Source: Eledone cirrhosa (Eukaryota). Taken from it: a stretch of DNA of 64,000 nucleotides. Position numbers and translations under genes: made by a program. The notes beneath the pieces are model-generated. The model worked only from the letters and a program-made list of their open reading frames with translations, ran no database searches and was not told the DNA's origin. Of this stretch, positions 13,271 to 48,165 are shown one piece after another. Position 1 is the first letter of the stretch, and every line of letters begins with the position of its first letter. The stretch lies in assembly GCA_964016885.1 (NCBI GenBank), contig OZ024748.1, positions 39,928,001-39,992,000 on the forward strand, written 5' to 3'.

Positions 13271-13297
13271 AGACAGAAAGAGAGATAGGTAGATAGA

Positions 13298-16200: not shown

Positions 16201-16785
16201 TTTGTGATGTCTTTTCTTTCTTTTCGAGCGATGGGGTTCTCCCTCGTCTTCACTGGGTGATGGCGATATAGCCTCATCTGTTGTATCGTCTGTGTGATTG
16301 GAGAGGGGTATGTCTTGGGGAGCTGTTGTGTCTGTATGTGATTTTGCAGTGGTTTTAGGTGGAGTGGGGTTGGGTGGGACTGTGTTTGTTGTGGTTATTT
16401 TTGTGTGTTGGCGTTGTTGTTGTTGTGGTGGTATTGGTGTTTGTGATGTTTTGATGGGTGTCGGCAGAAGAGCCTTTTTTTTATTCATTAATTTAGGACA
16501 GGAAGCCCTCATGTGACCCCTGCTAAAGCAATGGTAACATGAAGGCCACCTACCCTCAACCGAAAAGTTTATGTAAGTGAGTCCGTCCAGTAGTACACGT
16601 TGTGGGATCATAGCTATTCGCTCTGGGCTCATTTGCACCAGAACTTCAATGCTAGTCCCATTGAATACATCTCTGGGGGACTTGCCTACTGACAGTATTC
16701 TGTCACTACCAACGCTTGATTGGGTCTACTCCACCCCCTCCCCTCTTTTTCCTACTGGCAGGTTTAGCCACCATCTCCCCTAATA
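13298..16785 (-). mobile_element. Second Tx1/L1-clade LINE of a related subfamily; 3' end intact, internally deleted, 5'-truncated
   Basis: RT 15129-15776 (KSPGLDG, FRPI, LDQSKAFDRVDH) and 13539-15119 (RQGC, YADD, CPRC..HAFIHC). ORF1 knuckle CYHCFSRGHMRASC in 15958-16638. Minus-strand AATAAA at ~13305-13310, followed by a (TCTA)-type tract. Confidence 0.92.
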
Positions 16786-22552: not shown

Positions 22553-23955
<1,403 letters not shown>

Positions 23956-23987
23956 CGTGTATATATATATATGTATATATGTATATA

Positions 23988-24087
<100 letters not shown>

Positions 24088-24088
24088 C

Positions 24089-24121
<33 letters not shown>

Positions 24122-24129
24122 CATACATA

Positions 24130-24734
24130 CAGGGGTTGGACAAAATAATGGAAACACCTAGCATCATAGAATTATAATTTTGAAATATCTATAAAACCGT
24201 CAAAAGCTTGTTTATTTTTATTGTTCTCGAGGTGGTCATTAATTCTGGTAGTAATTTTGGTAGTAATTTTGGTAGTAATTTTGGTAGTAATTTTGGGAGC
24301 TGTACTTTTGTGATCCTTTCTAACAATTCGCGTAAGAGTCCGACGGTATCTATCTGAAAGTTTTGGTTTTCTTCCGGAGTTTTGTTTCGACGAGGAGGTT
24401 TTTCCCTCTTTCTCAAAGACTGTCATTACTTTCGAGACAGTACTTCTTGATACACCAAACATTTCGGCTGTTTTCGTTACACTAGCGCCTGCCATACGAG
24501 CACCAACAATTTGACCTCTTTGAAAGTCCGATAGATCTGTCATTTTAAGGAATTTTAATTACCTTTTTCTGATGATATCTGGAGAGAAACAGCAATTTTA
24601 ACAAATCATATTAAGCAACACTAATAATAAATATAAAAAAACATAAAAATAAACAATCTTTTGACGGTTTTATAGATATTTCAAAATTATGATGCTATGA
24701 TGCTAGGTGTTTCCTTTATTTTGTCCAACCCCTG
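24130..24734 (-). mobile_element. Internally deleted Tc1-family DNA transposon
   Basis: ~95-bp TIRs (CAGGGGTTGGACAAAATAA... / ...TTATTTTGTCCAACCCCTG) with TA on both sides. ORF 24172-24543 encodes a Tc1 paired-like HTH N-terminus (LSDFQRGQIVG..., SGRKPKLS); no DDE domain. Confidence 0.92.
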
Positions 24735-24777
24735 TATATATATATATATACATAATGTATAATATATATACATAATG

Positions 24778-24816
<39 letters not shown>

Positions 24817-24877
24817 GTATATATATATACATAATGTATAATATATATATATATACATAATGTATAATATATATACA

Positions 24878-25062
24878 TAATTGTTTCTACTTTTGACACA
24901 AGGCCAGCAATTACCCAGTACATTACTGGTACTTTATTTTATCGACCCCGTAAGGATGAAAGGCAAAGTGAACCTCGGCGGGATTTGAACTTAGACTATA
25001 AAGGGCCATAACTCTATGCTACAAAGCATGGTGTCCGACTCTCTGCTGATACTGCCAATCCA
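24878..25062 (-). mobile_element. tRNA-derived SINE
   Basis: Reverse complement of the family core plus head. Confidence 0.85.
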
Positions 25063-25069
25063 CATAATG

Positions 25070-25168
<99 letters not shown>

Positions 25169-25175
25169 ATGTTTA

Positions 25176-25211
<36 letters not shown>

Positions 25212-25223
25212 TTAATATAGATG

Positions 25224-25274
25224 AGATTCTACAGGACTAGAACTGTTTCATTCATAAGAAATCATCAGGAATCT
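25224..25274 (-). ncRNA. Hammerhead ribozyme-like motif (type I)
   Basis: Minus strand reads agattc-CTGATGA-tttcttatgaat-GAAA-cag..ctg-TA-gaatct: 6-bp stem I, stem III, GUA triplet. The stem II closing pair is non-canonical. Confidence 0.55.
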
Positions 25275-25579
25275 GGGTATCAAAAAATAAATATGGTATT
25301 TATAGGTCTCTACAAGTGGTAGGAGAGGGTGGGGAGTGGGATGGGTGCAGGTCATTGGTTGATAGAAAAGGGAATTCATTAAAAGCTAATTCTACAAAGC
25401 TATAATTTATTTTTATTTTTATTTATATTTATTTATGTTTTTAGAGTAACAAAGGCAGACAGAATTCTATAAACAGGTTCCGGATGGCATACCATTCCTT
25501 GTCGATAAGTTTCTCTTAAGCTAACAGGTGTCTATAAAATCAGTGGGGGGTCAGTCATGGTCGATAGAATTAAAGAAAT

Positions 25580-25650
<71 letters not shown>

Positions 25651-25654
25651 TATG

Positions 25655-25834
<180 letters not shown>

Positions 25835-25880
25835 GTGACGAAACATAAGTCAATTGCATGAACTCATAATCCTTTATTTA

Positions 25881-25934
25881 CTGCTATATATATTTCGATG
25901 ATAGCCATTGAGTGGTTATGACCTCATCAGGCAC
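25881..25934 (-). ncRNA. Minimal hammerhead ribozyme-like motif
   Basis: Minus strand reads tgc-CTGATGA-Ggtcataacca..tggctatcatC-GAAA-tatatata-gca, with a palindromic stem III. Confidence 0.6.
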
Positions 25935-26003
25935 TTAGTAAGTTCTTAGATATGCCACCTCTGTGCTTATGGTGTTGATTGTATCAGAGCCTTGGGGCAT
26001 ATC

Positions 26004-26050
<47 letters not shown>

Positions 26051-26108
26051 ACATAATGTATAATATATATATATAATGTATAGCTATACACTGTATATAT
26101 AATCATAC

Positions 26109-26162
<54 letters not shown>

Positions 26163-26164
26163 CA

Positions 26165-26313
26165 TATTCCAGCATAGCTACGTCCGTTAACGATCTTAGT
26201 TCAAATCCCGACGAGGTTGACTTTGCCTTTCATCCTTACGGGGTCGATAAAATAAAGTACCAGCAATGCACTGGGATAATTGATGGCCTTGTGCCAAAAG
26301 TAGAAACAATTAT
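26165..26313 (+). mobile_element. tRNA-derived SINE, truncated
   Basis: Family core present. Confidence 0.82.
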
Positions 26314-26327
26314 TACTATATATATAT

Positions 26328-27160
26328 ACTAGCTGAGGTACCCGGTAATACCCGGGAGCGGGAGTATTCCCAGTTCCCATTAAAATGCCCAATGCCTCTC
26401 AGACTAAAAATGAAATACAAATATACGACAGATAATCAAAAGCGAAGACAAATTCATTTACGAAACAATAATACAAACAAATATTGTTGATTACATTGGT
26501 CAGGTGAAAATATGTTCGTCAGAGAAGTTGAGTGATGCTATAAATAAACAAATAGAACCCCATTAGGGTGTCTCAATATTATTGACATTTGCTGAAATTT
26601 TGTGAATAGGTATCATATCTTGTCATTTACCTATGATTTAAATTTCATATAAATCGAAGGGAAAACATTTTCAGTGGGGGTTTTCAACGGGGTTTTGTGC
26701 CCCTAGGGACCCTTTGATTAAAATGAAATATACTTATCGAAGTACCCTGGGCAATGTAGTTTTAAAATATATATGGTTATGGGGGTCTATCTCCAAAAGC
26801 ATAGGAGGAGTTCGTGAAATCTTGTTCCATTTATTGGCCAAAATGTTCACTATAGGGGGTTTAACCCCCAATAGGGTGTCTTAATATTATTGAAATTTGC
26901 TGAATTTTTGTGAATAGGCATCATATCTTGTCATTTACCTATTGTTTAAATTTCTTATAAATCGATGGGAAAAAATTAAGCGGGGGTTTTCAGCAGAGGT
27001 TTGAACACCCGGGGAACCCTTTGATTAAAATGAAATATACGTAAGAAATCAAATGGGCATGAGCCCCCACACACGTGTCAAGCTACATCAAGATCCGTTT
27101 GTTAGTTTTTGAGTTTTAGGTTCACAAACAAACAAACAGAGAGAAATTGCCATTTATATA
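26328..27160 (-). mobile_element. Non-autonomous Helitron-like element
   Basis: Minus-strand 3' end: CCCGG-gtatta-CCGGG hairpin shortly upstream of CTAG|T. Internal ~300-bp-period tandem duplication. Partial copy at ~37630-37880. Confidence 0.65.
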
Positions 27161-27184
27161 TTTATATATATATATATATATATA

Positions 27185-28270
27185 TCTATATATACTATAA
27201 AGCTAACGGCCGTATGTATGTAACAAACTTTTCGCCAAACGGCTGGACCAAACAGCACCAAATTTGCACTATAGATGTAACTTTTTCCAAGTAAAAAGGT
27301 GAGGGTATTTTTGTCTACTGAATTTTGTTAAAAGATTAAAGACATTATTTAAATATTCACTTCTTTAAAATTTCAAATGTCAACACTTCCTGTTATACGA
27401 CATTCCTCACTTTTTTTCGTCGCACAACATTCCCCTCTTTTTCTTAGTCTGTCTTTTTAGATAGATATAGGGCTATAACGTAGCGTCTTTATAATATGTC
27501 TCTGTATGTCTGGCTGTCTGTATTAGATAACGTTTTTCGAAATATTTACTTCTGGGTTCACAGATTGATTTTTTTTAGTTTCAGAAGTTAAGGGTGAAAG
27601 CCTTTGCTTAAACATTGTTATTTTAATATATATATTCGTGTACAGATATTTTGCATACACAAAAACAAAAACCTATTTATTTCACTAAAGCACAGACGGC
27701 TTATCGTCATTGTTACTGTTCGAGGTTAGAGGACCACAGTCTTTCCAAGATCTGAGAACCATCAATAGCCATCAATGTTCCACTTACCGTTTGGCTTGCC
27801 AGATGCGTGGTTTGTTACACGATGACACCTATTGGCACCTCACCCTGCAAGAAGCAGCAACTGCTAAAGTCCCTTCTCAGCTGCGAAAACCTTTTGCTAT
27901 TATGCTGCACAACTGTGATCTCGCCACCCCGAAAGTCTAGTTGAAGACATCCTCCACCGCACACGCAGATACAATCCGAGCGTAACATACGATGTCGTTT
28001 TCAATGAGGCGCTCATCTGTCTTGAAAACAGTGTCCTGGAGATTGGTGGTAGGCTTCTGAGTCACTACAGCTTACCTACTCCTGACAGGAGTGTCCTGAG
28101 GTCAATGTCTACAGAGCTTCTCCGCGAGACGAGCTACGAGATCAGTGCTTCTCCAGTGGTCAATTGTATGTAGGATGCTCTAGGGTGAGCTCGCCAAACA
28201 ATCTCTTCATCTTTGCTCCGGAGGGCCGAACAAAAGATATTGTAAACTCTGAGGCTCTAACAATGTAATT
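27185..28270 (+). mobile_element. Helitron remnant with deleted Rep/Helicase coding pieces
   Basis: Starts with TC. ORF 27710-27940 LLFEVRGPQSFQDLRT...TYRLACQMRGLLHDD...LQEAA...PSQLR is a characteristic RepHel linker. A QLYVGCSR-like helicase C-terminal motif lies near 28160-28185. Confidence 0.8.
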
Positions 28271-29149
28271 TAAATATTTTCTGTTACTTGGAATTTTCAT
28301 TTTGGTTGTACAAATTATTGTTTGTTAAAAAATGTGTTCTCTGTTCAGCCTTTATTGTTGTAACTCTCAATTATCTTTAACGTACTGGCTGCTGAACTGG
28401 GGAATCCTAAAACTATTCAAACCCAACAATCATTTGGATAGTGAAAGAAAAAGAGAAAAATTTCAAATCTTTTATGAGGGATATGCAAATGAAGTAGAAG
28501 GGTAGACTGAAAATATCGTTATATTTAGACGCCAGGTACATTTAAATAATTATTAGGATACTTTATAAAAGAAGATGAAGCAGAAGAAGGAAGAAAGATA
28601 GGCTCATATTATTATTAGGGTGCAAGTAGATTTAAAAATTTAAAATGTGTTGAAGTGGTAGAATACTAAACCAAAAAGTGTTCAATATATAACCAAATCA
28701 TGAGTTATAATATATATATAATGTATATAATTATATTTTAAGGAATTAAGGTTGTAGGTACACTTTAGCTTATTATATTGCAACCAGTCAATTTAGCTTA
28801 TTATATTGAAACCAGTCAAATTAGCTTATTATATGGAAACCAGTCAATTTAGCTTATTATATTGCAACCAGTCATTATATACATATTTATATAAATAGAT
28901 AAAAATATATACATGCTGTTATTAATTCAAATATAATTTAAGGGTTACGAAGGATATGTGTTTACATTTTCAATATATAGTTAAGAAAAAAAAGTCCAAG
29001 ATGGCACGGATGGGGTGGTCAGGAAGGAGACGTCCATACCATAATGCCAATGTAAGACAGTAGCTATTGTCATTTTATCGTGTCAGTTGATATTACGTTA
29101 AATATAATTCCGGTTTTATCTGTGATTTACTGATATAGCTTACGTCAAT

Positions 29150-29555
29150 TGTTTCTTCTTCGTCCAGTTATTTCTGAGAGGGTCGTGGGGTCAGAGTCCT
29201 CCAACACTCCTTCCAGCAAGTCATGTCAGAAGCAACCGTTTCCAACTGATCCGGCTGGATCTCCCAAGCATGACCAGCCAAGCTCATGGATCTTAGCAAA
29301 CCATCTTACTCAGGGTGGGTCGATCCCTGGGTTTCTTGTCGGTTTGTTTTGCCCGTAAAATCTGTCCGGTGATTCTTTCCTGAGACAATCTAACCACATG
29401 TCCATAGTATCAGAGCTGTGATCTCTCAATTCGGAGAAGTAGCGGCTCTACCTGGAGTAACTCTCTGATCTCAGAACTACGCACTCTATCGAGTAACATT
29501 ACTCCAAAGACCCTTTAGAGGAATCCCATTTCGGCCGCTTGTATTGTTTCTATTT
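29150..29555 (-). mobile_element. RTE-clade LINE 3' fragment
   Basis: Homologous to the fragments at 32830-33630 and 38770-39010 (GR.R..W, W....L..LP.RP terminus). Confidence 0.6.
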
Positions 29556-29609
29556 ACGAAATAACACAACTGAGGATTTTAATAGTGTCAAATTTTCGTT
29601 TCTTTTCAG

Positions 29610-31107
29610 TTCCGACTTTATCGAACCATTTAAAATACATATTGTAGAGAACATAAAGATCAATAACCGTAACGACAGATTAATTGCTCTCGAGAAAGCT
29701 GACTACAACATCTTTAAATTACAACCTGAAGATGTCATGATCGATTTCCTTACAGATGCTGGCACTAATGCTTTCAGTCTTGAACAAAACGCAAGAATAT
29801 GGATGGGTGATGAAAGTTATGCCGGATCTACTAGTTATGAAACTTTGAAAGACACGGCAACATATATTTCTGGTTTTGAAAACATTCTGCCAGTTTTTTC
29901 TGAATGTATCAGCGAAGAGATTGTCGCTTCTTATTTCACAAAAGCTGGAGATAAGGTTATTGGGAATACTTTTACTTATTCACTTGAGAACCATATAAAG
30001 GATCTTCATGCTGAAGCGATTTCTTTGTTAGATTGGTCAGATAATAATTTTGCAGGAAATCTAGATGTTCAAGCACTCAAAAACTTATTGGCAGAAAATG
30101 ATAAAAAATCAATTTCCTTTCTTATAATGAATGTACCAGCAAAAAGTAGTGGTGGCCAACCAGTTAGTATGTCAAACATGAAAGCAGTTTCTGATCTCTG
30201 TCGCGAACATTCGATTCCGATATACATCGAAAGTAGTATGTATGGTGAGAACTGTTGGCTCAATAAAATGTACGAAGAGGCTTACTTCAATAAATCGTTA
30301 GTTGAGATATCGCAAGAAATGTTTTCTTTTTTCGATGGCTGCATTATTTCTGCTAAAAGAGATGGTAGAAGTGAGATTGGAAGTGTCATTTGTCTTCAAG
30401 ACAAAGAAATGACTCGAAAATTGGGCACTGTTATTACTCTTAAAGCAGGTTTCATAACTTATGGTGGGATGGCTGGCCGAGATATGGAAATGGTAGCGGT
30501 TGGCATGCGAGGTGCTTTGGATGAACAACTGCAAGACTATCGACAAAAACAATTGGCATTTTTCAAAAGATCCCTGAAGGAATTTGGTGTTCCGATTGTG
30601 GAGCCAGTCGGTTGTAATACCATCTTCATTGATGCTGAAAATGCTTTTCCTAACTGTAAACACGCGTTTTATCCAGCCTGGTCTTTATCTTGTGCTGTTT
30701 ATATCGTCGGGGGTATCCGATGCGCAGAGTTTGGTCAAGTTACTCGTCCAACAAGCAGCTTACCCACTAATCATTTTCTGAAAGACCGAGAATTACTAAA
30801 GCTTGAGATACCTCGTTTCATCTATACGACTTGTCACATTTTCTATGTTGCCTATGTTTTCGCTCAGCTTATTTCACATGAAATGCTTTCTGGAATGAAA
30901 CTTATTGCCTGCTCCGAAGACCAAATAAAACTCGTGAAAATAAAAATGAAACCAAATCATTCTCTGGAATATGACGATATCCAACTCCTTCCGGTACAAG
31001 ACTGTGAACACATTCACTTCTTTAAAAACATATCTAATCAAAGAGTTATGAAAAGAAATTCAATCGCCGAGGCATCTTCTATATGGTCAGTCGACATTCC
31101 TTCTTAA
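29610..31107 (+). CDS. Exon A: tryptophanase/tyrosine phenol-lyase-family domain, predicted PLP-less, retaining the trans-acting Tyr motif
   Basis: Uninterrupted ~1.5-kb ORF with EPFKI, IDFLTDAGT, GDESYAGS, GGQPVS, GFITYGGMAGRDME, GGIRCAEFG and IPR..YT. Polypyrimidine-AG acceptor (ttttcgtttcttttcag) ends at 29609. No ATG start: the ORF-track start at 29539 is a TTG inside an RTE relic. SAKKD is replaced by SAKRD. Possible donor at 31086. Confidence 0.85.
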
Positions 31108-31301
31108 AAAGGGGACAAACACGTTAGATAATGTAATCGTAGACACAAAAAAGACGTGGTAGTCATGATTGGAACGTCCCTGATCATAGAATTGCTCTGT
31201 CAATGTTCACCTGAACTTAAACAACAGCAACAACAACACAGAGATTTTTTTTGTTGCACCCAAACAGGATTCTGTAAATTCTAGATTGTACATTCTTTTA
31301 T

Positions 31302-31442
31302 TCTTTTACTGGTTTCAGTCATTAGACTGTGGCCATGCTGGGGCACTGTTCTTTTACTGGTTTCAGTCATTAGACTGTGGCCATGCTGGGACAGTGGTCT
31401 TTTACTGGATTCAGTGATTCTACTGTGGCCATGCTAGGGCAC
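31302..31442. repeat. ~48-bp tandem repeat x3 (CTTTTACTGGTTTCAGTCATTAGACTGTGGCCATGCTGGG...)
   Basis: Visible tandem units. Confidence 0.8.
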
Positions 31443-31640
31443 CAATTGATTGTTAGTTTGTTTTTTTTAATTGGTTTTATTCCCAACAATTAAACTATTG
31501 AACATGATTTTGAATAGAAAGTAGGGGAAAACATTGACAGTCTTGTCAAATATAGTTTTAATATTATGTTAACAAAAAAAGGAAATAAAATATCTTTGGA
31601 AACTTAAATATATTTCTTGTGATGTTCTTTTTACAATTAT

Positions 31641-31922
31641 TTCACCAATATATAATTAATATCAAACATTGTGATGTATGTTTCACCAATATATAATTAA
31701 TAACAAACATTGTGATGTATGTTACACCAATATATAATTAATATCAAACATTGTGATGTATGTTACACCAATATATAATTAATATCAAACATTGTGATGT
31801 ATGTTACACCAATATATAATTAATATCAAACATTGTGATGTATGTTTCACCAATATATAATTAATATGAAACATTGTGATGTATGTTTCACCAATATATA
31901 ATTAATATGAAACATTGTGATG
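31641..31922. repeat. 41-bp minisatellite x~7
   Basis: Unit TTCACCAATATATAATTAATATCAAACATTGTGATGTATGT. Confidence 0.9.
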
Positions 31923-32829
31923 TGGTTGTGATAATTCGGGGAAAGATGGTACAACGAATATTAGATAAACTAAGGTGAAAAGATACGACAAATCAGCATT
32001 TTAAACTTTTGTCTTATATTTCTTGATATTTTGAGGTGAAAAACTTTTTTCAAAAGAAAGAAATGGAGTCTGGTGTTGTCAACGCCCAAAGAATTGTTGA
32101 TAAACGATTTATTTACATCAACTTATTATTGATGGTGACATGCTTTTGTTTCACTTTAAAAAAATATTATAATAAGGTGACATACTAATATAAATATTAT
32201 TTTAAAAATAAAAAACAAATCTTGAAACATCTTATGACTGTGGCAGTGGCAAGGTTTATAGAGTTAAGAAGCCTCACAACCATCTGATTTCCGGTTCCTT
32301 TAGACTACATGGCATCTTAAAGAAGTGTCTTTCTGCCATAGGTTCGAGTCAACAAAACGGACAGTTTGCCCTTTTCAGCTTGGCGGGCAGCAGGGCCTGG
32401 ACTGGTGGTGGAATGCACCAGGTTGGTACTTGCAATTAATTGTAATATAACTGATAGATGTTGTTTCAATTCTGTGCCATTAATTGTAGATCAACGACAA
32501 CATTGTTGCAGTAGTTATTTCAATTCTGTGCCATTAATAATCTGTGTTACGAACACTACATAAATAGTCTACAGGTGTTACCTTGATTTCACCAGATGGA
32601 AATATCAAAATCAAAATTGATTATGTAATTGTTCCAAACAATATTCTCGAAATGGTGAAAAACTGCCATGTGTATATTTCTACAGATATTGGTCTAGAAT
32701 ATTTCAACTTAGAGACTGGAAAACACAAACGTTATTATCATAAATGTACTGTGATTGTGTAAGGCTTAATTATTAAAGATTGTAAGATCCATTCCCAGTG
32801 AATTGGTCAAACTATATCCAAGAATTTTC

Positions 32830-33630
32830 TTTTTCTTCCTTCACTTATTCCTGGGAAGGTCGTGGGGGAAGAGTCTTGAAACACTCCTTCTAGCAGGTCC
32901 TGTCAGAAGCAACCATCTCCAACTGATTTGGCTGGATCCCCAAGCGATACCTGCCAAGCTTATGGATGTTATCCAACTATCTTGCTCAGGGTCTACTCCT
33001 GGGTCTCCTGCTGGTTGGTTTTGCCAATAAAATCTGTCCAGTATTTCCTTGGACATTCTAGCCATATAATATGTAATATCAGAGCTATGATTTCTCAATT
33101 CGGAAAAGTATCAGTTCTACCAGGTGTGATTCACAAGTCTCCAAGCTACACACACTATCGAGTAATGATACTCCAAATACCCTTTTGGAGGAACCCCATT
33201 TTGGCCACTTGTATTTGCGATTGTATTCTTTCAGTCATTACACAAGATTCATGACCATAGGTAAGGGTTGGCACGAAAACCGAATTGAAGATAGTGAGTT
33301 TGGTGTTTACACCTACCTCCCTTCTTCTGATTACCAAATACCAAAGCTGTCACATTACTGCGGCAGCTCCTGCAATTATTGCACTTAATTCGGCCTCCTG
33401 CCTTCCATCACTCGTGACCATGGCCCTGAGATACTTGAACTTCTCTACCAACTTCAGTAGAACTCCCTTCGCATGTAGAATGCACTGCGCAGGCTTCCTT
33501 TAGAAGACGAGTGTCTCAGTTTTCACAGCACTGAATTTCATTCCAGCCATGCATCACTCTGCATCAAACCTATCAAGTGCAAGTCAGAGATCACCTTTTG
33601 TTGAGTTTGTAACACCATGTTGTCTGCAAA
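32830..33630 (-). mobile_element. RTE-clade LINE 3' portion (degenerate)
   Basis: KFKYLR, TKLTIFNSVFVPTLTYGHES, ..QVAKMGFL motifs on the minus strand. Confidence 0.75.
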
Positions 33631-33721
33631 TTCCAGCCACAAATTGCTGGCCATGTGCCTAAATTAGAAAACCTTATTCCTGCAAAAGGTCCTGTTAATC
33701 CTTAATTATTATTAAATATAG

Positions 33722-33976
33722 CATATATACAAACTGGAGCTGTGTCAGGGACCAGTCCGCAAACATATATACAAACTGGAGCTGTGTCAGGGACCAGCCT
33801 GCAAACATATATACAAACTGGAGCTGTGTCAGGGACCAGTCCGCAAACATATATACAAACTGGAGCTGTGTAAGGGACCAGTCCACAAACATATATATAA
33901 ACTGGAGCTGTGTCAGGGTCCAGTCCGCAAAAATATATACAAACTGGAGCTGTGTCAGTGACAATGTCTGCAAACA
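33722..33976. repeat. 42-bp minisatellite x~6
   Basis: Unit CATATATACAAACTGGAGCTGTGTCAGGGACCAGTCCGCAAA. Confidence 0.9.
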
Positions 33977-34301
33977 ATGAGTTGAAAATTTTAACACCAA
34001 GAAATATATGATAAATAAAAACTACAGTTAACAGATTTTTGTGTTTTGAATTACTAAAGTGACACGTGTACAATGTAATTGGTATATATATATATACTCT
34101 CTCTATATGTATGTGTTTTTATATAAATATGTAAATATTTGTGTGTATATATATATATATTGTTGTTATATAGTAAGGTGTATTATTGGTTGTGTCATAC
34201 GGTCCAATAAACTTTTGTTAGCAATATTAAGTTCTCCACGCTTTTGTATATCTCCAATTCCATTTAAGGGAACAGCTAGATGATGTAAAACGGAGTATTT
34301 G

Positions 34302-35881
34302 TATCAAAATAAAGATCCGAAAGCATGGTATAAATTTCCAATCATTTTAATCACAACACGTTTCAATAAGGGATAGATCGATCGTGTGGTCATGATCGAT
34401 TATCACTGATTTCATCATTCTTAACTGAGCGTGTAATACGTCTATTTACTAACTGAGAGAACTCTATGGTTAGGGTATTCTAAACCTTCCTCAGGATTTT
34501 TGGAAAGTAACCTACCACTAACTGCCCCCTTTTTACCTTAGCCATAGAGTTCTCTCAATTAGCAAAAAATAGACAATCACACACTCAGGTAGTAGACAGC
34601 TAAGATCGTTTGCGCACCTACACACTGTACTCGGTGTGTTTCCACAGAGTTCTCACAGCTGAGTGCATATTTACCATTACTTTAGAATACCTAGTTAGTA
34701 AATAGTTAGAACAATTACACTCGCAGTTAAGACCGATTACGCGCATTCACCATTACTTTAGAATACCCTAACCATAGAGTTCTCTCAGTTAGTAAATAGA
34801 CGTATTACACACTCAGTTAAGAACGTTACGCTCTTTATACATAATTCTACACAGTACCCGGTTTCTTTAGACACAGAGTTGCCACAGTTATGACCAGTCA
34901 TGATCTTGTCGATTGAATACTACACTAGGTTTTGGTCTGTGATCCTCTAACCAAGGAGTGCTCACAGTTTGCTGAATGGACAATACTACTTACACGCCAT
35001 CAATGGACTTACACACATCCCCGGGGTTTTATTTTATTTTGTGTTGGGTAACACACCTCCACCACTCAAACACTTATCTTAAAGGCCCGAGGGAAAACGC
35101 ACACACTGACACCTTAACTCAAATACCCAACCCTACATGGAGCCCCTTGTTGGCCTACATGGCAGGTGCTTGCACGCACAGACTCGGGGACCCAGATTCT
35201 CAACGGGACAACGGCACATATAGAGTTCGATACGAGCTGACTACTTGCTCTACACATGGATTTGTATATACCAAAACATACACTATTTAGACGATACAGA
35301 TGTTACAATTCAATCGATACACGTATAGCAGAACGTTGAAGGGAATTTACTTGCGTGTGTATAGTGTTGTGGTTGACCCAATTTTTTTCTAATTTACATC
35401 GTGAAAATTGAGATTTGACCAATATAACGTTTGTTGTTTTGTAACCTAACTTTTGGTGCATACTGTGTTGCTGTGTATATTTTTTTTTCTCTGACCTCGC
35501 GTCGGTGTGTGTGAGTGTGTGTGCACTCAATAACACTAATTGTGACGGACCAAAATTCTACAGATCTGGTGCTGAGATTAGACCTGTCCAGCGTCTTTTA
35601 CAGCTATTGAGAGATAGAGACTTGATAGATTTATGACCCTGACTGAAGACAATAGCAGTTGGCGTGTTTTGGCTGCTGATTATTCATATGGGGAACAAAA
35701 CTCCAGTGAGTGAACATCGTTAGTTTTTCCTCCCTCATATCAAAGATTTCAAGACATTTCATTATTCACCTGAGATCAGTGATAATCGATCATGACCACA
35801 CGATCGATCCCTTATTGAAACATGTGTCGTGATTAAAATGATTGGAAATGTATACCATGCCTTCGGATCTTTATTTTGATA
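34302..35881. mobile_element. Non-autonomous TIR element (MITE-like, ~1.6 kb) between exons A and B
   Basis: ~110-bp inverted termini TATCAAAATAAAGATCCGAA... (34302-34413) / ...TTCGGATCTTTATTTTGATA (35770-35881). A further internal inverted pair lies at ~34418-34485 / ~34757-34823. Confidence 0.75.
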
Positions 35882-35918
35882 TATATATATAAAACTGAAT
35901 TTACATTTTTTTTTCCAG

Positions 35919-37308
35919 TCTCCAAGCAATGGAACCTTACAGGATTAAGGTATTTTATCCAGTCAATTTAATCCCCAAGTCTGACCGTATTGCATGTCTA
36001 AAAGCTGCCAACTACAACCCCTTTCTACTTAAATCGAAAGACATATTTATAGATTTGCTAACAGATTCTGGTACAGGAAGTCAAAGCAGTGCCCAGTGGT
36101 CGGCTATGACTAAAGCCGGCTATTCAACTATTAATTCCGAATACGTTAAGGAATTTGTACGTACAATTCAACACATTACCAATTTCAAACATGTATTTCC
36201 AGTTCATCAAGGTCGAGGAGCCGAAGGTTTGTTGGCAAAACTCCTACTGAATAAAGAGAGTGTTGTACTGAGTAATTCTCTCTTTGACACAACACGAGCA
36301 CACGTTGAGTCATCTGGTGCAATTGGAATAGATTTGGCAACAAAGTCTTCAAAATTCTTAGGTGATGCCGATGTGGAAAAATTTGAAGAAACACTGGATG
36401 AATATGGTTCTAGAGTTCATCTTGTAATAATAACCTGCACCAATAATGTGGTAGCCGGAGCTCCTGTGAGCATGCAAAATATAGAAATCATAACAAAATT
36501 ATGTCGAAACAAGAATATCCCAGTTATAATGGACGCATGCCGTTTTGTTGAAAATGCTTATTTTATCAAGACCTTAGACGAAAAATATTCTAAACACACA
36601 ATCTTAGATATTGCCAGCGAAATGTTTTCTTATTTTGATGGTGCAACTATGTCTTTAAAGAAAGATGGTATGAGCAATGAAGGTGGGTTTATAGCTTTCA
36701 ACAACGACAAATGGGCCACCAAAATATTTGACATAATCGAATATAAAAGTGGTTATTCAACTTACGGGGGAATAACTGGATCAAATCTTGTAGCATGTAC
36801 TGTCGGAATTTCTGAGGCTATGAACGAAAATTACCTCCGATCAAGAATCTATCAGGCTAAATTACTGGCTGATTTCTTGGAAGATAATAATATTCCCGTA
36901 TTTAAACCAGTAGGGGCCCATGCCGTCTACGTGAAAGCAAACAAAGTCTTGCCACACCTTGATTTCTTGAAGTATCCAGCATGGTCCCTTAATTGTGCCG
37001 TATATATCGATGGTGGTATTCGATGTGCAGAAATTGGCAATATAATGTTTGGTGAAAATTCAGATGGAACAAAACAAATTCATCCCTTTGAATATGTGCG
37101 TTTGGCTTTACCCAGAAGAACCTATACGGTCAACCATCTGCATTTTGTGGCCAAAACTTTTGGTTTTGTTGCCAAAAAAGCCCATTTAATCCACGGAATG
37201 GAAATTGTCAAATCTTCGCATCTCCTAAGACATTTCACAATTTGGATGAGACCATTAAATGAATACCACCTTGAAAAGAATAATAATCAGAAAAAAATAA
37301 ACTGTTGA
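35919..37308 (+). CDS. tnaA: Exon B: tryptophanase (tryptophan indole-lyase)-like domain with intact PLP site but no GDExY motif
   Basis: MEPYRIK, IDLLTDSGT, HQGRGAE, SNSLFDTT, MDACRFVENA, MSLKKDG (PLP Lys codon 36661-36663), TYGG, GAHAVY, GIRCAEIG, VRLALPRRTY, LRHFT. FDTT, EIG and LRHF are the TnaA-type rather than TPL-type (FTTT, ERG, LRFF) residues. Acceptor tttttttttccag ends at 35918; an in-frame ATG is at 35929. Confidence 0.9.
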
Positions 37309-37629
37309 AGTTTGCCATAAATTACAATGTCAGTTATCTCTTGTGTACAGAAGAAGTTCATTAGAAGTATATATCACACTGGCCAAATTACCCACACCTT
37401 GCTGCGTTTCACACTTTTTTTTTTTTAAAGAAAATGATGAATGATTTTAAATCAGCGATATAATTTATGGAGAAAAACTCTGCATTTCAATATTACTCAA
37501 TGTAAAATGTAATGCATGAAAAATTGGAAAACATTATTTTTTGTTATATATCAAATCAAAATTACATTATTAAATCTGATTCTATTTTGTTTCTTGTAAA
37601 TAATTTTTTTCAAAATATCAATTCAAAAC

Positions 37630-37880
37630 TTTTGTGAATAGGGCATCATATCTTGTCATTTACATATGGTTTAAATTTCATATAAATCGAAAGGAAAAAA
37701 TTTTCAGCAGGGATTTGTGCCTCCGGGGAACCCTTTGATTAAAATGAAATATACTTATCCAAGTAACCTGGGAAATGTAGTTTCAGAATATATATGGTTA
37801 TGGGGATCTAGCTCCAAAACTATAGGAGGAGTTCATGAACAAACAAACAGACAGGAACTACAACTTTATATATATAGATT
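37630..37880 (-). mobile_element. Partial copy of the Helitron-like repeat at 26328-27160
   Basis: Shared TTTGTGAATAGG..ATCATATCTTGTCATTTAC and CCCTTTGATTAAAATGAAATATAC. Confidence 0.7.
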
Positions 37881-38011
37881 ACTACCTACGTTTAAATGGG
37901 TTTTATATAAATGAATTTAAATGGCTTTTAATGGGTACATGTGTGTGCTTATATTAGTGAAGAAGTGCTTGCTTAAGAACTATGACATATGACTTCATAA
38001 CACATATTATT

Positions 38012-38202
38012 GTGGTGGATTGGCAGTATTGGGAGAGGGTCGGATGCCATGCTTTGACGTATAGAGTTACGGCCCTTGCCATTCTGAGTTCAAATCCCGC
38101 CGAGGTTAACTTTGCCTTTCATCCTTACGGGGTCGATAAAATAAAGTACCAGTAATGAACTGGATATTTGCTGACCGTGTGCCTAACTTAGAAACAATTA
38201 TT
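38012..38202 (+). mobile_element. tRNA-derived SINE
   Basis: A/B boxes and family core. Confidence 0.85.
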
Positions 38203-38769
38203 GCTATAAAGAGAAATTCGTATTTTCTTGCATGTTTACATGCCTACATATTAAATATATGTATAGTTCTACACACAGTCTCAGCTACACACTCTGTATT
38301 TATACAGATATAAATTTATCATTCACTATGGCTGCTAGCATACTTCTTAATATATATATATTAAATAAGTACCAATACAAACGCTAATTAAATGCAAATT
38401 AATTTCATTGGTACAAGAGATTTCAACACATTCTGCTTTTCAACTCGGCAAAAATACAGAGAGTTTGGCTAATATAGCAACATAGCTACACACACTTGCT
38501 AACCCTAACCCCTGCCGAAATTGAAACTAGCTGAGTTTGCTACACAGGTTACTAAATATCACGACTATGTATTCTACAATTGCACACACAATATACTGCA
38601 TGTATACTTGCACCTTTTTCTGTTTTCATTGCTGCACCTTAACAACGAAGTAAATCATTTTATAAATAAAAATATTTAAATTAGCAGTGTCTTGTTTATT
38701 TGTTAATTCTTATCCACGTGATTTGGAAAAATCATCTTACCCAGGGTAATATCACTTCACAGTACACAT

Positions 38770-39010
38770 CAGGAGTGGTTTATTTGACCAATACGGTCAA
38801 ACTTCTCTGGACTCGCAGACATACTTGGCATTGCTTCACCAACATAGTAAAACCAACCAGCAGGAGTCCCAGGGGTAGACCCCAAGCAGGATGGATGGAT
38901 AACATCCATGAGCTTGGCTGGTCTTGCTTGGGGATCGAGCCAGATCAGTTGGAGACGGTTGCTTCTGACAGGACCTGCTGGAAGGAGTGTCTGAGGATTC
39001 TGCAACAGCA
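38770..39010 (+). mobile_element. RTE-clade LINE 3' fragment
   Basis: RSPRGRPQAGWMDNI..LGW..LGI...ASDR..W; homologous to 32870-33060. Confidence 0.7.
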
Positions 39011-39014
39011 TTTG

Positions 39015-39375
39015 GAAGATTATACTGAAGACTTGGGCATGTGGAAGAGCTGCATGAAGCTACTGAATGATGAGCAGAAGGAGCGACATGTGCAGGTGCG
39101 TAAGCACATCCTCAAGCATTTTGAAATCAAACCAAACATTTTCCTTTTCCCCAAGCTGAAGAGGGTCATCAGAGGAACCTGAGGTAGAAGCCATGAAGAG
39201 GGCTATATTAGCAGAGCTATGGAGAATTCTGGGTGAATCCATCCAAGAGTGCAGGGAGAAGAAAAATGGGAAATTGTGTTTGACCCAAGGGGGATTATTC
39301 TGAAAAGGAAAACTTCTAGATTTAAAATATTTTATTTTGCAACTTCTGTCCTGTTTCTTTTCTGTCACTCCATAT
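39015..39375 (+). mobile_element. Deleted mariner transposase relic
   Basis: EDLGM.K...KLLNDEQKERHV joined to FLFPKLKRVIRG, both mariner-like motifs. Confidence 0.6.
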
Positions 39376-39382
39376 ATATACA

Positions 39383-39715
39383 TGGCTTAGTGGTTAGAGC
39401 ATTTGCCTTGCAATCGAAAGGTTTGAGTTCAATTCTCAGACCGGGTGATGTGTTGTTTCCTTGAGCAAGACACTTTATTTCACATTGCTCCAGTTTACTC
39501 AGCTGTAGAAATGAGATGATAGGGACTGGGGTCCCTATCATTCCACTGCAAAGTGGTCATGGAGGTGCCACGGCAAAAAAGCACCCAGCACTCACTGTAA
39601 ATGAGGTTGGTGTTAGGAAGGGCATCCAGCTGTAGAAATCAAGCCAGAATCAGTTCCCGTCCTACCCTTGCAAGAAGGGAAAAGTGGACGTAAAATGATG
39701 ATGATGATGATGATA
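39383..39715 (+). mobile_element. Second tRNA-derived SINE family with (ATG)n tail
   Basis: TGGCTTAGTGGTTAGAGC (A box), GAGTTCAATTC (B box), CCTTGAGCAAGACACTT core, AGGAAGGGCATCCAGC and AAGTGGACGTAAAATGATGATG tail. Confidence 0.75.
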
Positions 39716-40478
39716 TATATGGATAATAGGATGAATTTGGTACAACCAATAAATTATAAAGGCAACAAATATTTTCTTGTTTTAATATTGCAGTTTATAC
39801 ATATCTTAAGAAGCAGTATAAGAAAAGCTTACATTTCATTTTCAAACTTAAGTAAAAAATAAAATATATATTTATTTTCAATTTTTAAAATGCGAGCAAA
39901 AACATAAAATCGATTTGAATATTCATCACACATACATATATATACATGTATATTATTTGGAAAAAAAAGGGGGTGGGGTAAAGTTTTATACAAAAAAATG
40001 ATGACCAGTTCGAATATTTGAGAGAAAACTCAAGTATATTCGAACTGCTCAGATATTAAAAAAAATTTTTTTATTAATATTCAATATTTAACATCTAATA
40101 TTTGATAAAATTGTTTTACCAATCGAAACCAGTTATATTTAATGCAACAATTATAAAATTATTCATTCTGTCAGATTAAAGAAAAAATAATCTTTTAATA
40201 TTCCCTGGACTTTGGCAATTTCAACCCCCTACCAACAGTACTGCTGGTTCACTCTGGGTCACAGCGTCTGAGACAAGTCAGAGCGTAGTGTCCAAATAAT
40301 TATTTTAAATTATTCTATGAAAAATAAAAATTAATTACACGTATCTAAATATCACAATTTGTTTTGTTGGATGATCTACCAACTTTGCCATCAACCAGTC
40401 ATTTCTATCAAATAATTTCCAATAATATTTGTGAATATGAAAAGGTAAAGAAAGATCAATATATGTGTGTGTATATAT

Positions 40479-43619: not shown

Positions 43620-46600
43620 AAAAGACAGCGAGAAGCGAAAACCAACCAAACAGTGAGTGTGTTCTGTTATTAATTCTGGCAATATTACGCAAATATGACC
43701 CTCCCCAAATATAACAATATCTGTTTCGACACACGATTTCATATAAAAAACCTCGCAAAACTAATTCATCGCCGCTATGGCATTAGCTTGTGCCAAGCTG
43801 AAAGGTTATTGAAAGACACTGTTTTCTGTTATATAAAAACTACAATAACAACAGAACAAATCCGCTTCTTAAAACACTGTTTCCTCCAAAACATACACAA
43901 CAAACATATCAAAACAAGTAAATAATTTATTATTGAACAAAACACAAGCTGAACGGCTAAAACACACAATAACAGTTAATATGAAAAGAACAACATACAC
44001 AAAAGTCAACGCACTCTACAGACAAAAACGCGTCAACGGTAAGGAAATCCGAAATCTCATCACAGCAAACGAGAGAGATGACTTCATGAGCGTCATCCGA
44101 CGCGAAACGAAATATGCTCAAAACGAATGCTGTAGGCATTTCAAGAAGAAATTAGAATGGATGAATAAGAAAAAACTACAAGAAAGGAAAATCGAATATT
44201 CTCAAAAATACCCAGATAACATCGACAACATCCGTATGAGTGATGTAAAACTACCGGAAGAATTTACCAATGACCACACAGTAAATGGGAACACTTTAAT
44301 CAGTGAACAAGAACAACAAATCCTAAAGTTACCACCAAAATTTGCCATCTACAAAAAGATTAACCCTATGGAATGCAAAACGGAGCTGGAAAAGTGTTTC
44401 ACAAAAATACGTTGGAATGCAAAGGTAAACAACAACAACAATAATAACGGTAGTAGTAATATAAACAATAACTCTGGGTATAGAAATAACAGCCATAACC
44501 ATAACAATGGCAGGAAAGTGAGAAATAGTGATAATGGCAATAATACTAGCGATAGACAGAACAACAACAACCACAATAATAATAATAATAGAAACGTTAA
44601 CCACAGACACAGCAACAGTGACCACAGTAGTAATAACGGTAACAATACGAACAACAACAACAACAATAACCACAGTGGTAATAATGGAAATAGTACATGT
44701 AGCAACATCAACAAAAACAAGAAATATAATAATAGTAACAACCACAATGGTAGAAATAGCAGTAACAACAACAATAACGGTGAAGTAAACAACAATACAT
44801 CTAGCAACCATAACAATAATAATATTAATGCTAATGATAGAAACAACAACAACCACCATGATAACAATAATAGCAACACACACAACTATGACGATAGAAA
44901 TAACGACAACCCCTTAGAGAAACTATTCTTCAACCCAGCTGACAAAACATATAAGATGGGTAATATCTATCCTACGAGGTTACCCTTTAATAAAAGAGTT
45001 TGCATACCACAGCAAATAGATGACGAGACGGAGGCACAGTTCACCATAGCTAGAAATAAGATTAGACAAGTAGTAGACAGGTACACTATGAGACAGAGCA
45101 GACCAGAGGCCCAACAACTTGGGATAAAACCTGTAGAAGGCTTGGTTAGCCTCAAGCAGCGCACAAGGGATGGTGAGGTAGTGTGTCTACCCACAGATAA
45201 GTCTGGTAGGATGTCAATAGATAGCATGACGAACTACATCGAGGCAATGCAACCCCACATCACCAACACGAGCGAAGTTGCACAACTAACACACGATGGG
45301 AGAGAAAAAATCCTCAACGCTCACATGATGATGTGGACTGACATCCTAAAGCCAAGCAGACGCACTGCCAACAACTTCCAGGCGTCTAACAATGGCATAC
45401 CACCCTTGTATGGGCTCCGCAAAGACCACAAGACAGTCGACGACCCGACAACAGGACCACCAACAAGACCCGTATGCGGAGCTAATATAGCTAGCAACTA
45501 CAGGATCTCCTACTTCCTCTCAATGGTTATACGCCCCATAATCAAGATGTCCCCAGATGTATGTGAAAGTACAGAGGACCTCCTCAGCAGAATCAGTGAG
45601 TGCAACAAAAACAGGAGCCTATCCAACTGCATAATAGGCAGCATGGATGTGGTGTCACTGTACCCATCCATTAACATTGATTTTGCTGTGAAAAGATGTG
45701 TGGAGATGATCATTGAGAGTGAGGTGGAGTTCTGCGACGTCGACACAGACGAACTGGGCCTCCTACATAGACTTACCTACGACACTGACTACCTAGACAG
45801 CCATGACCTTAGATGTTTCTGCCCTAGTAGACCTATAAGAGGTAGACCCCCCACCATAACCTCAATGGCTAAAAAGACTCCCATAGGAAGGTGGATTGGG
45901 TGGACCAAAGCTATACGGACCCCCCAAAACACTGATCAGGTAAGAAAAATGGTCGCACATGCAATAGGGGCTAGTATCAAAACTACCCTAAAGGGCCACA
46001 TATTTAAGTTCAATGAGAAAATCTACACCCAAAATGAGGGAGCAGCCATCGGCGTCAGCATAGCTGGTGATGTTGCCAACCTTTTCATGGTATGGTGGGA
46101 AAGGAGACTTAAAGATCTCCTTAATGAAAGCTCCATAGACCTCATCATGTTCTCTCGTTATGTAGACGATATCAATATAGTTATAAGAACACCCCCACTA
46201 GAGAGCACTAACAAGTTTGATTTAGAACGTAGCACGATGGAAAGCATCCAGCAGATAGCTAATTCCATACACCAGAGTATAACTGTAACTATAGACTTCC
46301 CTTCCAAACACCCTAACAATAGACTACCTGTATTAGACACAGAACTCTGGATTAACACTATAGACGAGAGAGCCCAAATTCTCCACTCACACTATGCTAA
46401 ACCCATGGCCTCCAAATACCTGATACTCAAAAACTCAGCAATGTCCAGTAGTGCTAAGTTTAATATTCTGATCGCAGATTTGGTACGAGTGATGAAGAAT
46501 GTGTCCAGCATGTGCGACCCAACAGAAATGGAAGGACACATCCAACACTTCATCAACCGCATGCAGTTCTCTGGCTACAACCAAAGAGACAGAGTCAGAG

Positions 46601-48165
46601 TATACGAAGGAGCCATGGAAAAGTATAAGACCCTCATAGAACTGGACATGAAAGGAATTTGCCCACTATACAGGAGCAAATCATGGAATAGCTTAGATAG
46701 GGCTAGACATAAGATAGGGAAGGCCACATCATGGTACGACAACCAGAGATATCAGAGTGTCATGTTTGTGGACGCCACCCCTGGAGGGAAATTAGCTAAC
46801 CAGCGTAGAAAGGCCCTGAGAAAGACCCACTTAAAAATAAAGGTGGTAGAAAAGCCAGGAACCACCATAAATTCCCTGATCAGCAAAACCTTCCCTTTTA
46901 AGAAAACCCACTGTACCAATAGGAAATGTATCATTTGTAAGGTGAACCCCCGGATAAACTGTAAAACTAGAAACGTAGTCTATAGCATAAGATGTACAGA
47001 GGGTACTTGCAGAAACATGACAACAACATACATAGGTGAGACAGCTCGTAGCATAGGTGAAAGGATAGACCAACACTGGAGGGAACTAAAAGGACGAAAA
47101 AACGGGTCAGTACTATACGAACATGCTAGACAACAACATGACGGTAACATAGACAACATAGAAATTAGAATAATATCTAAACATAGGAATGACCCAGCAG
47201 ATAGGCAAATCAGAGAGGCCAGTGAAATAGAAATTAGAAGACCAAAGCTAAACAGAAAGAATGAGTGGAACAACAACAACACCCAAACAAACAACACTGA
47301 CCTAAGAGAAGTATAAATAAGTAAATAAAATTAAATAAAATAAGATAAATAAATACATACACAAGCACATAAACACACACTAGTCACCCAGCAGACACAA
47401 CACTATACACACTAGTCACACATCACACATAACACTATACACACACGCAAACGCATGCGCAAAGAAGACAAAATAAAATAAGATAAACAAACAAGCAAAT
47501 AAATAAATAAATATATAGACAGACTGAACAAAAAAAATGGCGTAGACATACAACACAACAGGAGGAACAATGAATATAACACCACTGACGATGTTGCAGA
47601 TGTGCAACGAAAGATTTATGTAAATTATGTAAACTATATATATGTGTTTGTGTCTATATTGTATCTGTATTATTTTTGACCGCCGGTCAGTCAATGGCAA
47701 CATTGAGGACCGAGTAAGTTAGATCGCAGATTTATATATATAAAAGACAGCGAGAAGCGAAAACCAACCAAACAGTGAGTGTGTTCTGTTATTAATTCTG
47801 GCAATATTACGCAAATATGACCCTCCCCAAATATAACAATATATATATATACATATATATATATACACATATATATAATTTCGAAAAAAATATTGAAAAG
47901 AAGATTTTCTTACAGATCGGAGAAGTCCATGGCTGTTTCTTGTCGGTTTGGCAGATGTTTCGTAGAATTGATGTGATTTATGGTATATCACCTCCCACGT
48001 AAATCTCTTACTTGTCGATCGTGGAATAATTATGTCCTAGATAGATAGCGTGTGTGTGTCTGTCTGTATGTATGTATGTATTGAGGCAGAAAGAAAGAGA
48101 GAGAGGCGATAGAAAAGGGAGGGTTTACGTAACAGTGTAGGATATAGAGAAGGCAATTTTAATAA
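43620..48165 (+). mobile_element. Penelope-like retroelement, near intact, with terminal direct repeat (pseudo-LTR)
   Basis: Direct repeat ~43620-43715 / ~47742-47840 flanks the RT-GIY-YIG ORF. The downstream sequence is shared with the truncated copy at 22.5-23.9 kb. Confidence 0.9.
43933..47316 (+). CDS. Penelope-like reverse transcriptase + GIY-YIG endonuclease (1127 aa open) with a long Asn-rich insert
   Basis: PTDKSG, LYGLRKDHK, PTRPV, MDVVSLYPSI, GAAIG, RYVDD, LPVLD; Cys linker CTNRKCIIC (Neptune/Nematis-like); VVYSIRC...YIGETAR..ER..H, R..RE, LN. The N-terminus probably extended into ORF 43695-43925 and is now interrupted. Confidence 0.92.
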   Translation: MNKTQAERLKHTITVNMKRTTYTKVNALYRQKRVNGKEIRNLITANERDDFMSVIRRETKYAQNECCRHFKKKLEWMNKKKLQERKIEYSQKYPDNIDNIRMSDVKLPEEFTNDHTVNGNTLISEQEQQILKLPPKFAIYKKINPMECKTELEKCFTKIRWNAKVNNNNNNNGSSNINNNSGYRNNSHNHNNGRKVRNSDNGNNTSDRQNNNNHNNNNNRNVNHRHSNSDHSSNNGNNTNNNNNNNHSGNNGNSTCSNINKNKKYNNSNNHNGRNSSNNNNNGEVNNNTSSNHNNNNINANDRNNNNHHDNNNSNTHNYDDRNNDNPLEKLFFNPADKTYKMGNIYPTRLPFNKRVCIPQQIDDETEAQFTIARNKIRQVVDRYTMRQSRPEAQQLGIKPVEGLVSLKQRTRDGEVVCLPTDKSGRMSIDSMTNYIEAMQPHITNTSEVAQLTHDGREKILNAHMMMWTDILKPSRRTANNFQASNNGIPPLYGLRKDHKTVDDPTTGPPTRPVCGANIASNYRISYFLSMVIRPIIKMSPDVCESTEDLLSRISECNKNRSLSNCIIGSMDVVSLYPSINIDFAVKRCVEMIIESEVEFCDVDTDELGLLHRLTYDTDYLDSHDLRCFCPSRPIRGRPPTITSMAKKTPIGRWIGWTKAIRTPQNTDQVRKMVAHAIGASIKTTLKGHIFKFNEKIYTQNEGAAIGVSIAGDVANLFMVWWERRLKDLLNESSIDLIMFSRYVDDINIVIRTPPLESTNKFDLERSTMESIQQIANSIHQSITVTIDFPSKHPNNRLPVLDTELWINTIDERAQILHSHYAKPMASKYLILKNSAMSSSAKFNILIADLVRVMKNVSSMCDPTEMEGHIQHFINRMQFSGYNQRDRVRVYEGAMEKYKTLIELDMKGICPLYRSKSWNSLDRARHKIGKATSWYDNQRYQSVMFVDATPGGKLANQRRKALRKTHLKIKVVEKPGTTINSLISKTFPFKKTHCTNRKCIICKVNPRINCKTRNVVYSIRCTEGTCRNMTTTYIGETARSIGERIDQHWRELKGRKNGSVLYEHARQQHDGNIDNIEIRIISKHRNDPADRQIREASEIEIRRPKLNRKNEWNNNNTQTNNTDLREV

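Follow-up and report, generated by a model that had tools for sequence, protein, structure and literature searches.

Cephalopods reportedly possess two tryptophan indole-lyases (TILs), each inactive on its own, which become active as a heterotetramer on co-expression. TIL-alpha and TIL-beta are the subject of a study (Yuasa HJ, J Mol Evol 2023, 91:912-921, PMID 38007709) that is listed as reference 27 in the accessible portion of PMC12980246, and a cephalopod TIL heteromer appears to have been published already. In this study, we examined a stretch of 64,000 nucleotides (nt) of the Eledone cirrhosa genome (assembly GCA_964016885.1, contig OZ024748.1, positions 39,928,001 to 39,992,000 of the forward strand; hereafter the window, in whose own numbering features are given unless stated otherwise), which contains two exons, here called A and B, for subunits of the tryptophanase family. 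An initial annotation, made from the letters of this stretch, had proposed that A and B could be spliced into a single two-domain chain. Our analysis points to a different arrangement, namely that A and B are probably alternative last exons of one gene, from which two separate proteins would be made that form a heteromeric enzyme.

For tryptophanase and tyrosine phenol-lyase (TPL), the accessible text of two papers describes an active site formed between two subunits (PMC10170061, PMC2770544), in which, in TPL numbering, pyridoxal 5'-phosphate (PLP) is bound by Lys257 and Tyr71 serves as catalytic acid (PMC10170061); the Escherichia coli counterpart of Tyr71, Tyr74, is in contact with PLP bound in the adjacent subunit (PMC2770544). 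As to octopuses, the portion available of one paper names octopus among the carriers of tnaA and makes no mention there of isoforms (PMC8537960), that of a second does not have the accessions dealt with here among its 12 transferred genes (PMC6011040), and that of a third gives Octopus bimaculoides as having no KEGG match to tryptophanase (PMC4962025). A description of the shared first exon set out below was not found in the literature searched, a search outside which most subscription papers fall.

Complementary subunits encoded by exons A and B

Both exons lie on the forward strand. Exon A (29610-31107) encodes a subunit of the tryptophanase family that lacks the PLP lysine and, counting the putative first exon, is 504 amino acids (aa) long, and exon B (35919-37308) encodes one with the PLP lysine and without Tyr71, 468 aa long on the same count. 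The two proteins are 30 % identical to each other. Both match the beta-eliminating lyase family PF01212 (A, E 3.9e-37, 128.6 bits; B, E 5.4e-53, 180.6 bits; cut-off 27) as well as NF009709 (398 and 493 bits, cut-off 285), and their scores for the equivalogs TIGR02617 and TIGR02618 lie under the respective cut-offs of 826 and 721 (A, 279 and 320 bits; B, 348 and 382 bits). Bacterial tryptophanase (1ax4, 2c44) and TPL (1tpl, 2ez1) match each of them over the full length with E values of 1e-59 to 1e-99; a comparison with the ESM Atlas gave the family name and nothing beyond it. The nearest relatives of both are octopod: A is 75-77 % identical to the Octopus X1 proteins (75 % to 'tryptophanase 1 isoform X1' of O. 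bimaculoides) and B is 82-83 % identical to the X2 proteins (82 % to 'tryptophanase isoform X2' of the same species).

Using TPL numbering, taken from alignments of A and B to the family structures, we found that the two paralogues, which are orthologous to the octopus TILs, carry complementary disabling substitutions. A lacks Lys257 (replaced by Arg), Asp214 (Glu), Arg217 (Met), Asn185 (Lys) and Arg404 (Lys) as well as Phe123, His343 and Asn262, and keeps Glu69, Tyr71, Tyr291 and Arg297, the residues donated across the dimer. B retains all the same-subunit residues tested and lacks Glu69, Tyr71 (Thr) and Arg297. The residue replacing the lysine in A is Arg250 (codon 30358-30360, in the motif SAKRDG), an Arg in all seven A rows of the alignment; Tyr71 corresponds to Tyr70 of A (codon 29818-29820), the catalytic acid given to the neighbouring subunit, which is kept in all A types and lost in all B types; and the PLP lysine of B, placed by alignment to the family, is encoded at 36661-36663. 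The Lys257/Tyr71 split is consistent throughout (7/7 A rows, 9/9 B rows). Of the features that a canonical homomeric tryptophanase or TPL combines, the Lys257 set is thus found in B alone and Tyr71 in the GDE.YAG loop in A alone. As Tyr71 works in trans, this division suggests a B-A dimer with one complete site, in which PLP would be held by B, and Tyr71 and Glu69 would be supplied by A; such a dimer would have one working site, and neither protein would be active alone. The suggestion of the initial annotation that the two halves complement each other is in agreement with these residue losses.

The same complementary losses are seen in deeper A and B types (P0309 and P0185; P0002-P0004), at 43-57 % identity.

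Asp at the position of TPL Thr124 and His at that of TPL Phe448 are markers of tryptophanases. B has both, together with Ile at 381, and Ile or Val at the position of TPL Arg381 is given as a mark of tryptophanase in the accessible text of PMC3870968. With these tryptophanase-type residues in B, the likelier reaction, and the one that we consider likely, would be that of tryptophan to indole.

In addition, we modelled a complex of B (residues 1-450) with A (residues 1-475), which reached an interaction prediction score from aligned errors (ipSAE) of 0.70, compared with 0.00 for the best of three controls; the mark applied to such models is reached by 51/78 solved and 2/108 mismatched microbial pairs, and by 39/65 and 2/126 eukaryotic ones, respectively. 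At least 93 % of contacts recur between runs, and the predicted local distance difference test (pLDDT) value of the partner is at least 86. According to the model, residues 67-74 of A would sit on the site of B, and Glu68 of A would contact Gly51 and Asn253 of B, which we take to be the potassium site; the ligands of that site are Gly52, Asn262 and, from the neighbouring subunit, Glu69.

A candidate first exon and the donor at 31085

When we looked in the window for a short exon opening with ATG and resembling the N-terminus of P0001, the O. bimaculoides X2 protein, a 17-nt candidate first coding exon emerged at 22814-22830 on the forward strand. It starts in a strong context (GCC ATG G), reads ATG GAC TTC TCC GAT CT, which codes for MDFSD plus CT, ends in phase 2 and is followed by the donor GTAAGA at 22831. 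Joined to 29610 it yields MDFSDLSDFIEPFK at the start of A and joined to 35919 it yields MDFSDLLQAMEPYR at the start of B, both in frame. The corresponding introns, placed with the help of orthologous isoforms, would be 22831-29609 (6779 nt, phase 2) and 22831-35918 (13,088 nt), the latter closing with the acceptor tttttttttccag, which ends at 35918 in phase 2; that both acceptors are of phase 2 at the same protein position would follow from a common first exon that ends in phase 2. Candidate poly(A) signals of the A isoform are AATAAA at 31584-31589, which had already been pointed out, and ATTAAA at 31489; the first candidate 3' of B is ATTAAA at 37569-37574.

The annotated proteins of two octopuses have the matching N-termini. 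In O. bimaculoides, the consecutive accessions XP_014791032.1 (P0183, isoform X1) and XP_014791033.1 (P0001, isoform X2) begin with MDFSDLSDFIEPFK and MDFSDLLQAMEPYK, respectively, and O. sinensis has the matching pair XP_036366181.1 (X1) and XP_029647098.2 (X2). All four RefSeq proteins open with MDFSDL and go on with the A-type SDFIEPFK or the B-type LQAMEPYK/LHAMEPYK. A copy of the first exon lies 6-7 kb upstream of A in six of the ten forward A copies of the array described below, and none was found in the spacer between A and B in any of nine A-B units (the window and L009-L017). One exon upstream whose donor suits the phase of either acceptor, and which orthologous isoforms have in common, is the pattern of alternative last exons, and from these isoforms we infer that the exon 22814-22830 is used in E. 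cirrhosa. Its splicing partner would be A or, with A skipped, B; the two proteins would be made separately and then pair into one active site. One gene would in this way make both subunits of an obligate heteromer by the choice of its last exon, and how much active enzyme there is would be set by the ratio of splicing to A and to B. The A-only and B-only isoforms envisaged by the initial annotation, the latter through skipping of A, match RefSeq X1 and X2 once the shared first exon is taken into account. Its choice between a fusion and separate first exons, on the other hand, did not consider the combination that agrees with the data, a common first exon with two terminal exons.

Several points weigh against this reading. 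The X1 and X2 isoforms in RefSeq are annotation models, the A model of O. vulgaris (P0302) begins with another N-terminal sequence, and the first-exon donor agrees with the consensus at 3/7 positions, so that the donor at 31085, discussed below, is the better of the two with 5/7. The deep A type P0309 opens with MDSANAIYLNEPYK and deep B types with MNFDEL or MDFNEM; sharing of the first exon may not hold outside octopods, and, since the N-terminus of P0309 is unlike those of the deep B types, the first exon may have come to be shared only after A and B had diverged. As for the complex model, its score may come from likeness to the solved dimers of TPL and tryptophanase, and it does not separate A-B from A-A or B-B pairing.

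The proposed fusion depends on a donor near the end of A. Recomputation bore out the position of this donor, TG/GTCAGT at 31085/31086 (as ATG/GTCAGT, 31083-31091), in the frame of A and 22 nt ahead of the end of its stop (31107), as well as its phase 2 and that of the acceptor at 35918. The join across an intron of 4833 nt (31086-35918) reads IAEASSI-C-LQAMEPY and is indeed open, giving 960 aa with the first exon counted, and exon A measured to the donor (29610-31085) is 1476 nt long, a multiple of 3. At the non-GT positions of the consensus, the donor matches 5/7. Sites this good occur 2.1-2.3 times per kb on either strand of 26200-40200, and A has three in 1.5 kb, which is the background rate; a phase-matched donor of such quality is expected 0.05 times in the 72-nt tail of A and 0.10 times in 135 nt. 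The donor therefore stands out from chance only weakly and is mildly unusual, not compelling. One contig (set X2) spans 29517-31242 unspliced with five differences, none near the donor, the sequence around which it confirms, and four contig sets from one study aligned to 29450-31300 show no splice joint; one of the four, X4, reaches only the repeat at the start of this interval and nothing of A. As contigs of unspecified kind, they do not bear on splicing.

More weight falls on where the A protein ends. A extends about 50 aa beyond the last motif of the family (KMKP, aa 445-448). Its six close orthologues (P0183, P0301, P0302, P0184, P0303 and P0133), among them proteins of O. bimaculoides, O. 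sinensis, O. vulgaris and Argonauta hians, all stop at the codon matching the one that starts at 31033, which is 53 nt upstream of the donor; the deeper A types P0185 and P0309 terminate earlier than these six. The E. cirrhosa protein thus has a lineage-specific read-through tail of 24 codons (31033-31107), and because the window's A is nested within the stop-bearing orthologues in the tree, the read-through is probably derived. The roughly 45 extra residues that had been read as an inter-domain linker do exist as additional C-terminal length; however, the first 26 of these ~45-50 residues are the tail common to octopod A proteins, where it ends in a stop. Since the donor lies behind the stop in all orthologues examined, a fusion through 31085 would be neither old nor shared, and at most new here. 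Likewise, with the donor lying outside the reading frame of the orthologues, the idea of exon A as a symmetric cassette is not supported, and A would rather act as an alternative last exon. Variation in the A tail was considered as evidence and rejected: its 72 nt carry four changes, each of them altering an amino acid, versus 19 altering and 13 silent ones in the rest of A, which is too few, and a linker would be loose as well.

In one copy of the array (L016), A lacks not only the ancestral stop but also the one at 31105-31107 and extends to 517 aa.

We also searched for a fused protein. B was searched against proteins of 810-2310 aa (50 matches from 6954 candidates, a search that is weak for long proteins) and an A-type profile against 1.84 billion representatives, from which the best 150 of 3469 were taken. 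No animal protein with A followed by B was present among 70 long relatives of at least 780 aa, with the weak sensitivity for long proteins just mentioned, and a fused isoform was absent among the O. bimaculoides and O. sinensis entries of the protein collection searched. Argonauta P0133 (847 aa) is the one protein of the 70 with close similarity to A or B, all others reaching 42 % at best; it was rejected as a precedent, consisting of a truncated B and then A in the reverse order, and is likely a gene-model join of neighbouring units. Looking through proteomes for two-domain proteins of ~950-1000 aa, as had been suggested, thus yielded no animal A+B among these 70, and the bacterial-type proteins that do exist are of separate origin (see below).

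If the donor at 31085 were used at a meaningful level, a 960-aa single-chain A-B would be made beside the A-only and B-only proteins, and the loss of the ancestral stop of A would have allowed such joining. The join is open and the phase is right, with the low chance expectation given above, but the shared phase is already accounted for by the first exon; the donor is found in 10/10 forward copies, but this was rejected as evidence of conservation, the A copies being 99.3-99.8 % identical. Although the A-then-B order and the residue split recur in 25/30 two-domain proteins, with linkers of ~10-30 aa, no animal A+B turned up in the searches, which were weak for long proteins, and the donor is 3' of the stop in every orthologue examined. 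Taken together, we consider the fusion improbable, with a small chance left for a minor fused form in this one species, and the history that it would imply, in which a lost stop exposed a latent in-phase donor and the resulting new 960-aa A-B tryptophanase was amplified tenfold, equally doubtful. Were it true, it would mean that a heterodimer is becoming one chain in a living animal, on the same design of a dead N half and a live C half that bacteria reached independently, and the locus would then offer an uncommon view of two subunits fusing by way of a lost stop codon and a dormant splice site.

It is also conceivable that A and B are two genes that still give a heteromer, B being expressed from a first exon of its own in 31108-35918 or from its in-frame ATG (MEPYR), 10 nt inside the exon, behind a non-coding exon. 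The spacer does contain ten ATG-led phase-2 exon candidates with donor scores of 4-5, but none of them resembles the MDFSDL exon and several lie inside tandem repeats; the A and B proteins of O. vulgaris are separate accessions with different starts, whereas X2 of two other species opens with MDFSDL just as X1 does, and none of the nine spacers holds a first-exon copy. This leaves two genes with a small chance. A further proposal, that B alone acts on a substrate not needing Tyr71, such as serine or S-alkyl-cysteine, and that A has a separate, non-catalytic role, appears very remote to us: Tyr71 and Arg381 are described as dispensable for some substrates in the accessible text of PMC3870968 and B has every same-subunit residue tested, but B has lost Glu69 and Arg297 as well, and A, its own site gone, keeps exactly the neighbour-acting residues across proteins that are 43-45 % identical; activity of the heteromer has, moreover, reportedly been published (Yuasa 2023). 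With A and B as alternative last exons of one gene, the GT at 31085 would most likely be unused or rarely used, in a tail left by the loss of the ancestral stop of A.

The repeated unit and its surroundings

The unit is repeated between 39.12 and 40.13 Mb of the contig (39121000-40132000), where we found ten forward A, nine B and two inverted half-A copies with exon identities of 99.1-99.9 %. Five of the ten units (the window, L009, L012, L015 and L016) are intact, with a first exon, an open A and an open B; the other five have a frameshift or a premature stop, or are units in which no B or no first exon was found. Some of the copies could be assembly duplicates; however, spacer lengths differ among them, which favours real copies. 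In the inverted copies L018 and L019, the initial 829 nt of A come after the first exon, and a further inverted copy of the first exon, on the reverse strand at 47914-47930, is an orphan with no A or B exon after it within the window. Three adjacent gene models of the tryptophanase family occur in Argonauta hians, which hints at a second expansion.

Repeats surround the exons. A very-high-copy repeat lies just 5' of A (29160-29545) and again in the A-B spacer (32830-33250). An open frame of 1147 aa at 43873-47316 on the forward strand, with motifs that we take to be reverse-transcriptase-like and GIY-YIG-like, probably belongs to a Penelope-like retroelement, the 3' end of which recurs in reverse at ~23300-23900, just past the first exon. 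Broken frames resembling a long interspersed nuclear element (LINE), endonuclease- and reverse-transcriptase-like by eye, occupy 7977-16725 on the reverse strand. The identical translations of 52335-54956 and 57343-59964, 5008 nt apart in a long tandem repeat, represent a local or an assembly duplicate.

Relation to fused and heteromeric enzymes

From the searches 32 long proteins were chosen, 30 of which are two-domain proteins of ~820-930 aa (among P0134-P0181, P0187 and P0200); the three named members of this set are all bacterial. In 25 of the 30, the N half has Tyr71 and lacks Lys257, and the C half has Lys257 and lacks Tyr71. A quick tree of 74 rows, in which 14 of the 30 were included, placed A, B and a chiton tryptophanase in one group with a Shimodaira-Hasegawa-like approximate likelihood-ratio test (SH-aLRT) value of 99. 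In approximately unbiased (AU) tests on 39 rows, grouping of A with the N halves (p 0.0014) and of B with the C halves (p 4e-06) was rejected, and grouping of A with B was not (p 0.65). An origin of A and B by fission of a bacterial two-domain gene is thereby rejected, and tree and tests together indicate that a duplication within molluscs gave rise to the octopod pair, which came by convergence to the same design as the fused proteins.

Two further observations concern the long proteins. P0134 has its Tyr71 on the C half instead, and Streptomyces and Micromonospora have tryptophanases joined to an aromatic prenyltransferase domain, PF11991 (P0159-P0165, P0169, P0172 and P0174-P0177).

With the isoforms already in RefSeq and the heteromer apparently published, the gain from this locus is modest. 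What is added is that the fusion need not be considered a conserved feature, that about ten recent copies of the unit exist, half of them damaged, and that a single chain with its active site divided in this way evolved independently in bacteria.

Compared with the bacterial enzymes TnaA (EC 4.1.99.1) and TPL (EC 4.1.99.2), A and B belong to the same family with its inter-subunit active site; the bacterial enzymes, however, are homotetramers of complete subunits, whereas A and B each lack a defining catalytic residue. The metagenomic two-domain TPL-like proteins (e.g. GBD07018.1 of bacterium HR21) show the same division of labour as A and B, but in a single chain, such as the proposed fusion would be, and with a separate origin. 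Serine palmitoyltransferase, as described in the accessible text of PMC6148460, is likewise a PLP heterodimer (SPT1/SPT2) with a lysine-less subunit and presumably one active site, and it has a natural single-chain form in Coccolithovirus; unlike A and B, it belongs to the alpha-oxoamine synthase (AOS) family, is encoded by two separate genes and catalyses other chemistry. The Octopus X1/X2 pairs are orthologous and carry MDFSDL on both isoforms, with the difference that their A stops 24 codons sooner. A and B also fit TIL-alpha and TIL-beta, as these are reported to be, by their residues, and the tenfold tandem array and the 24-codon tail of A are features of this genome.

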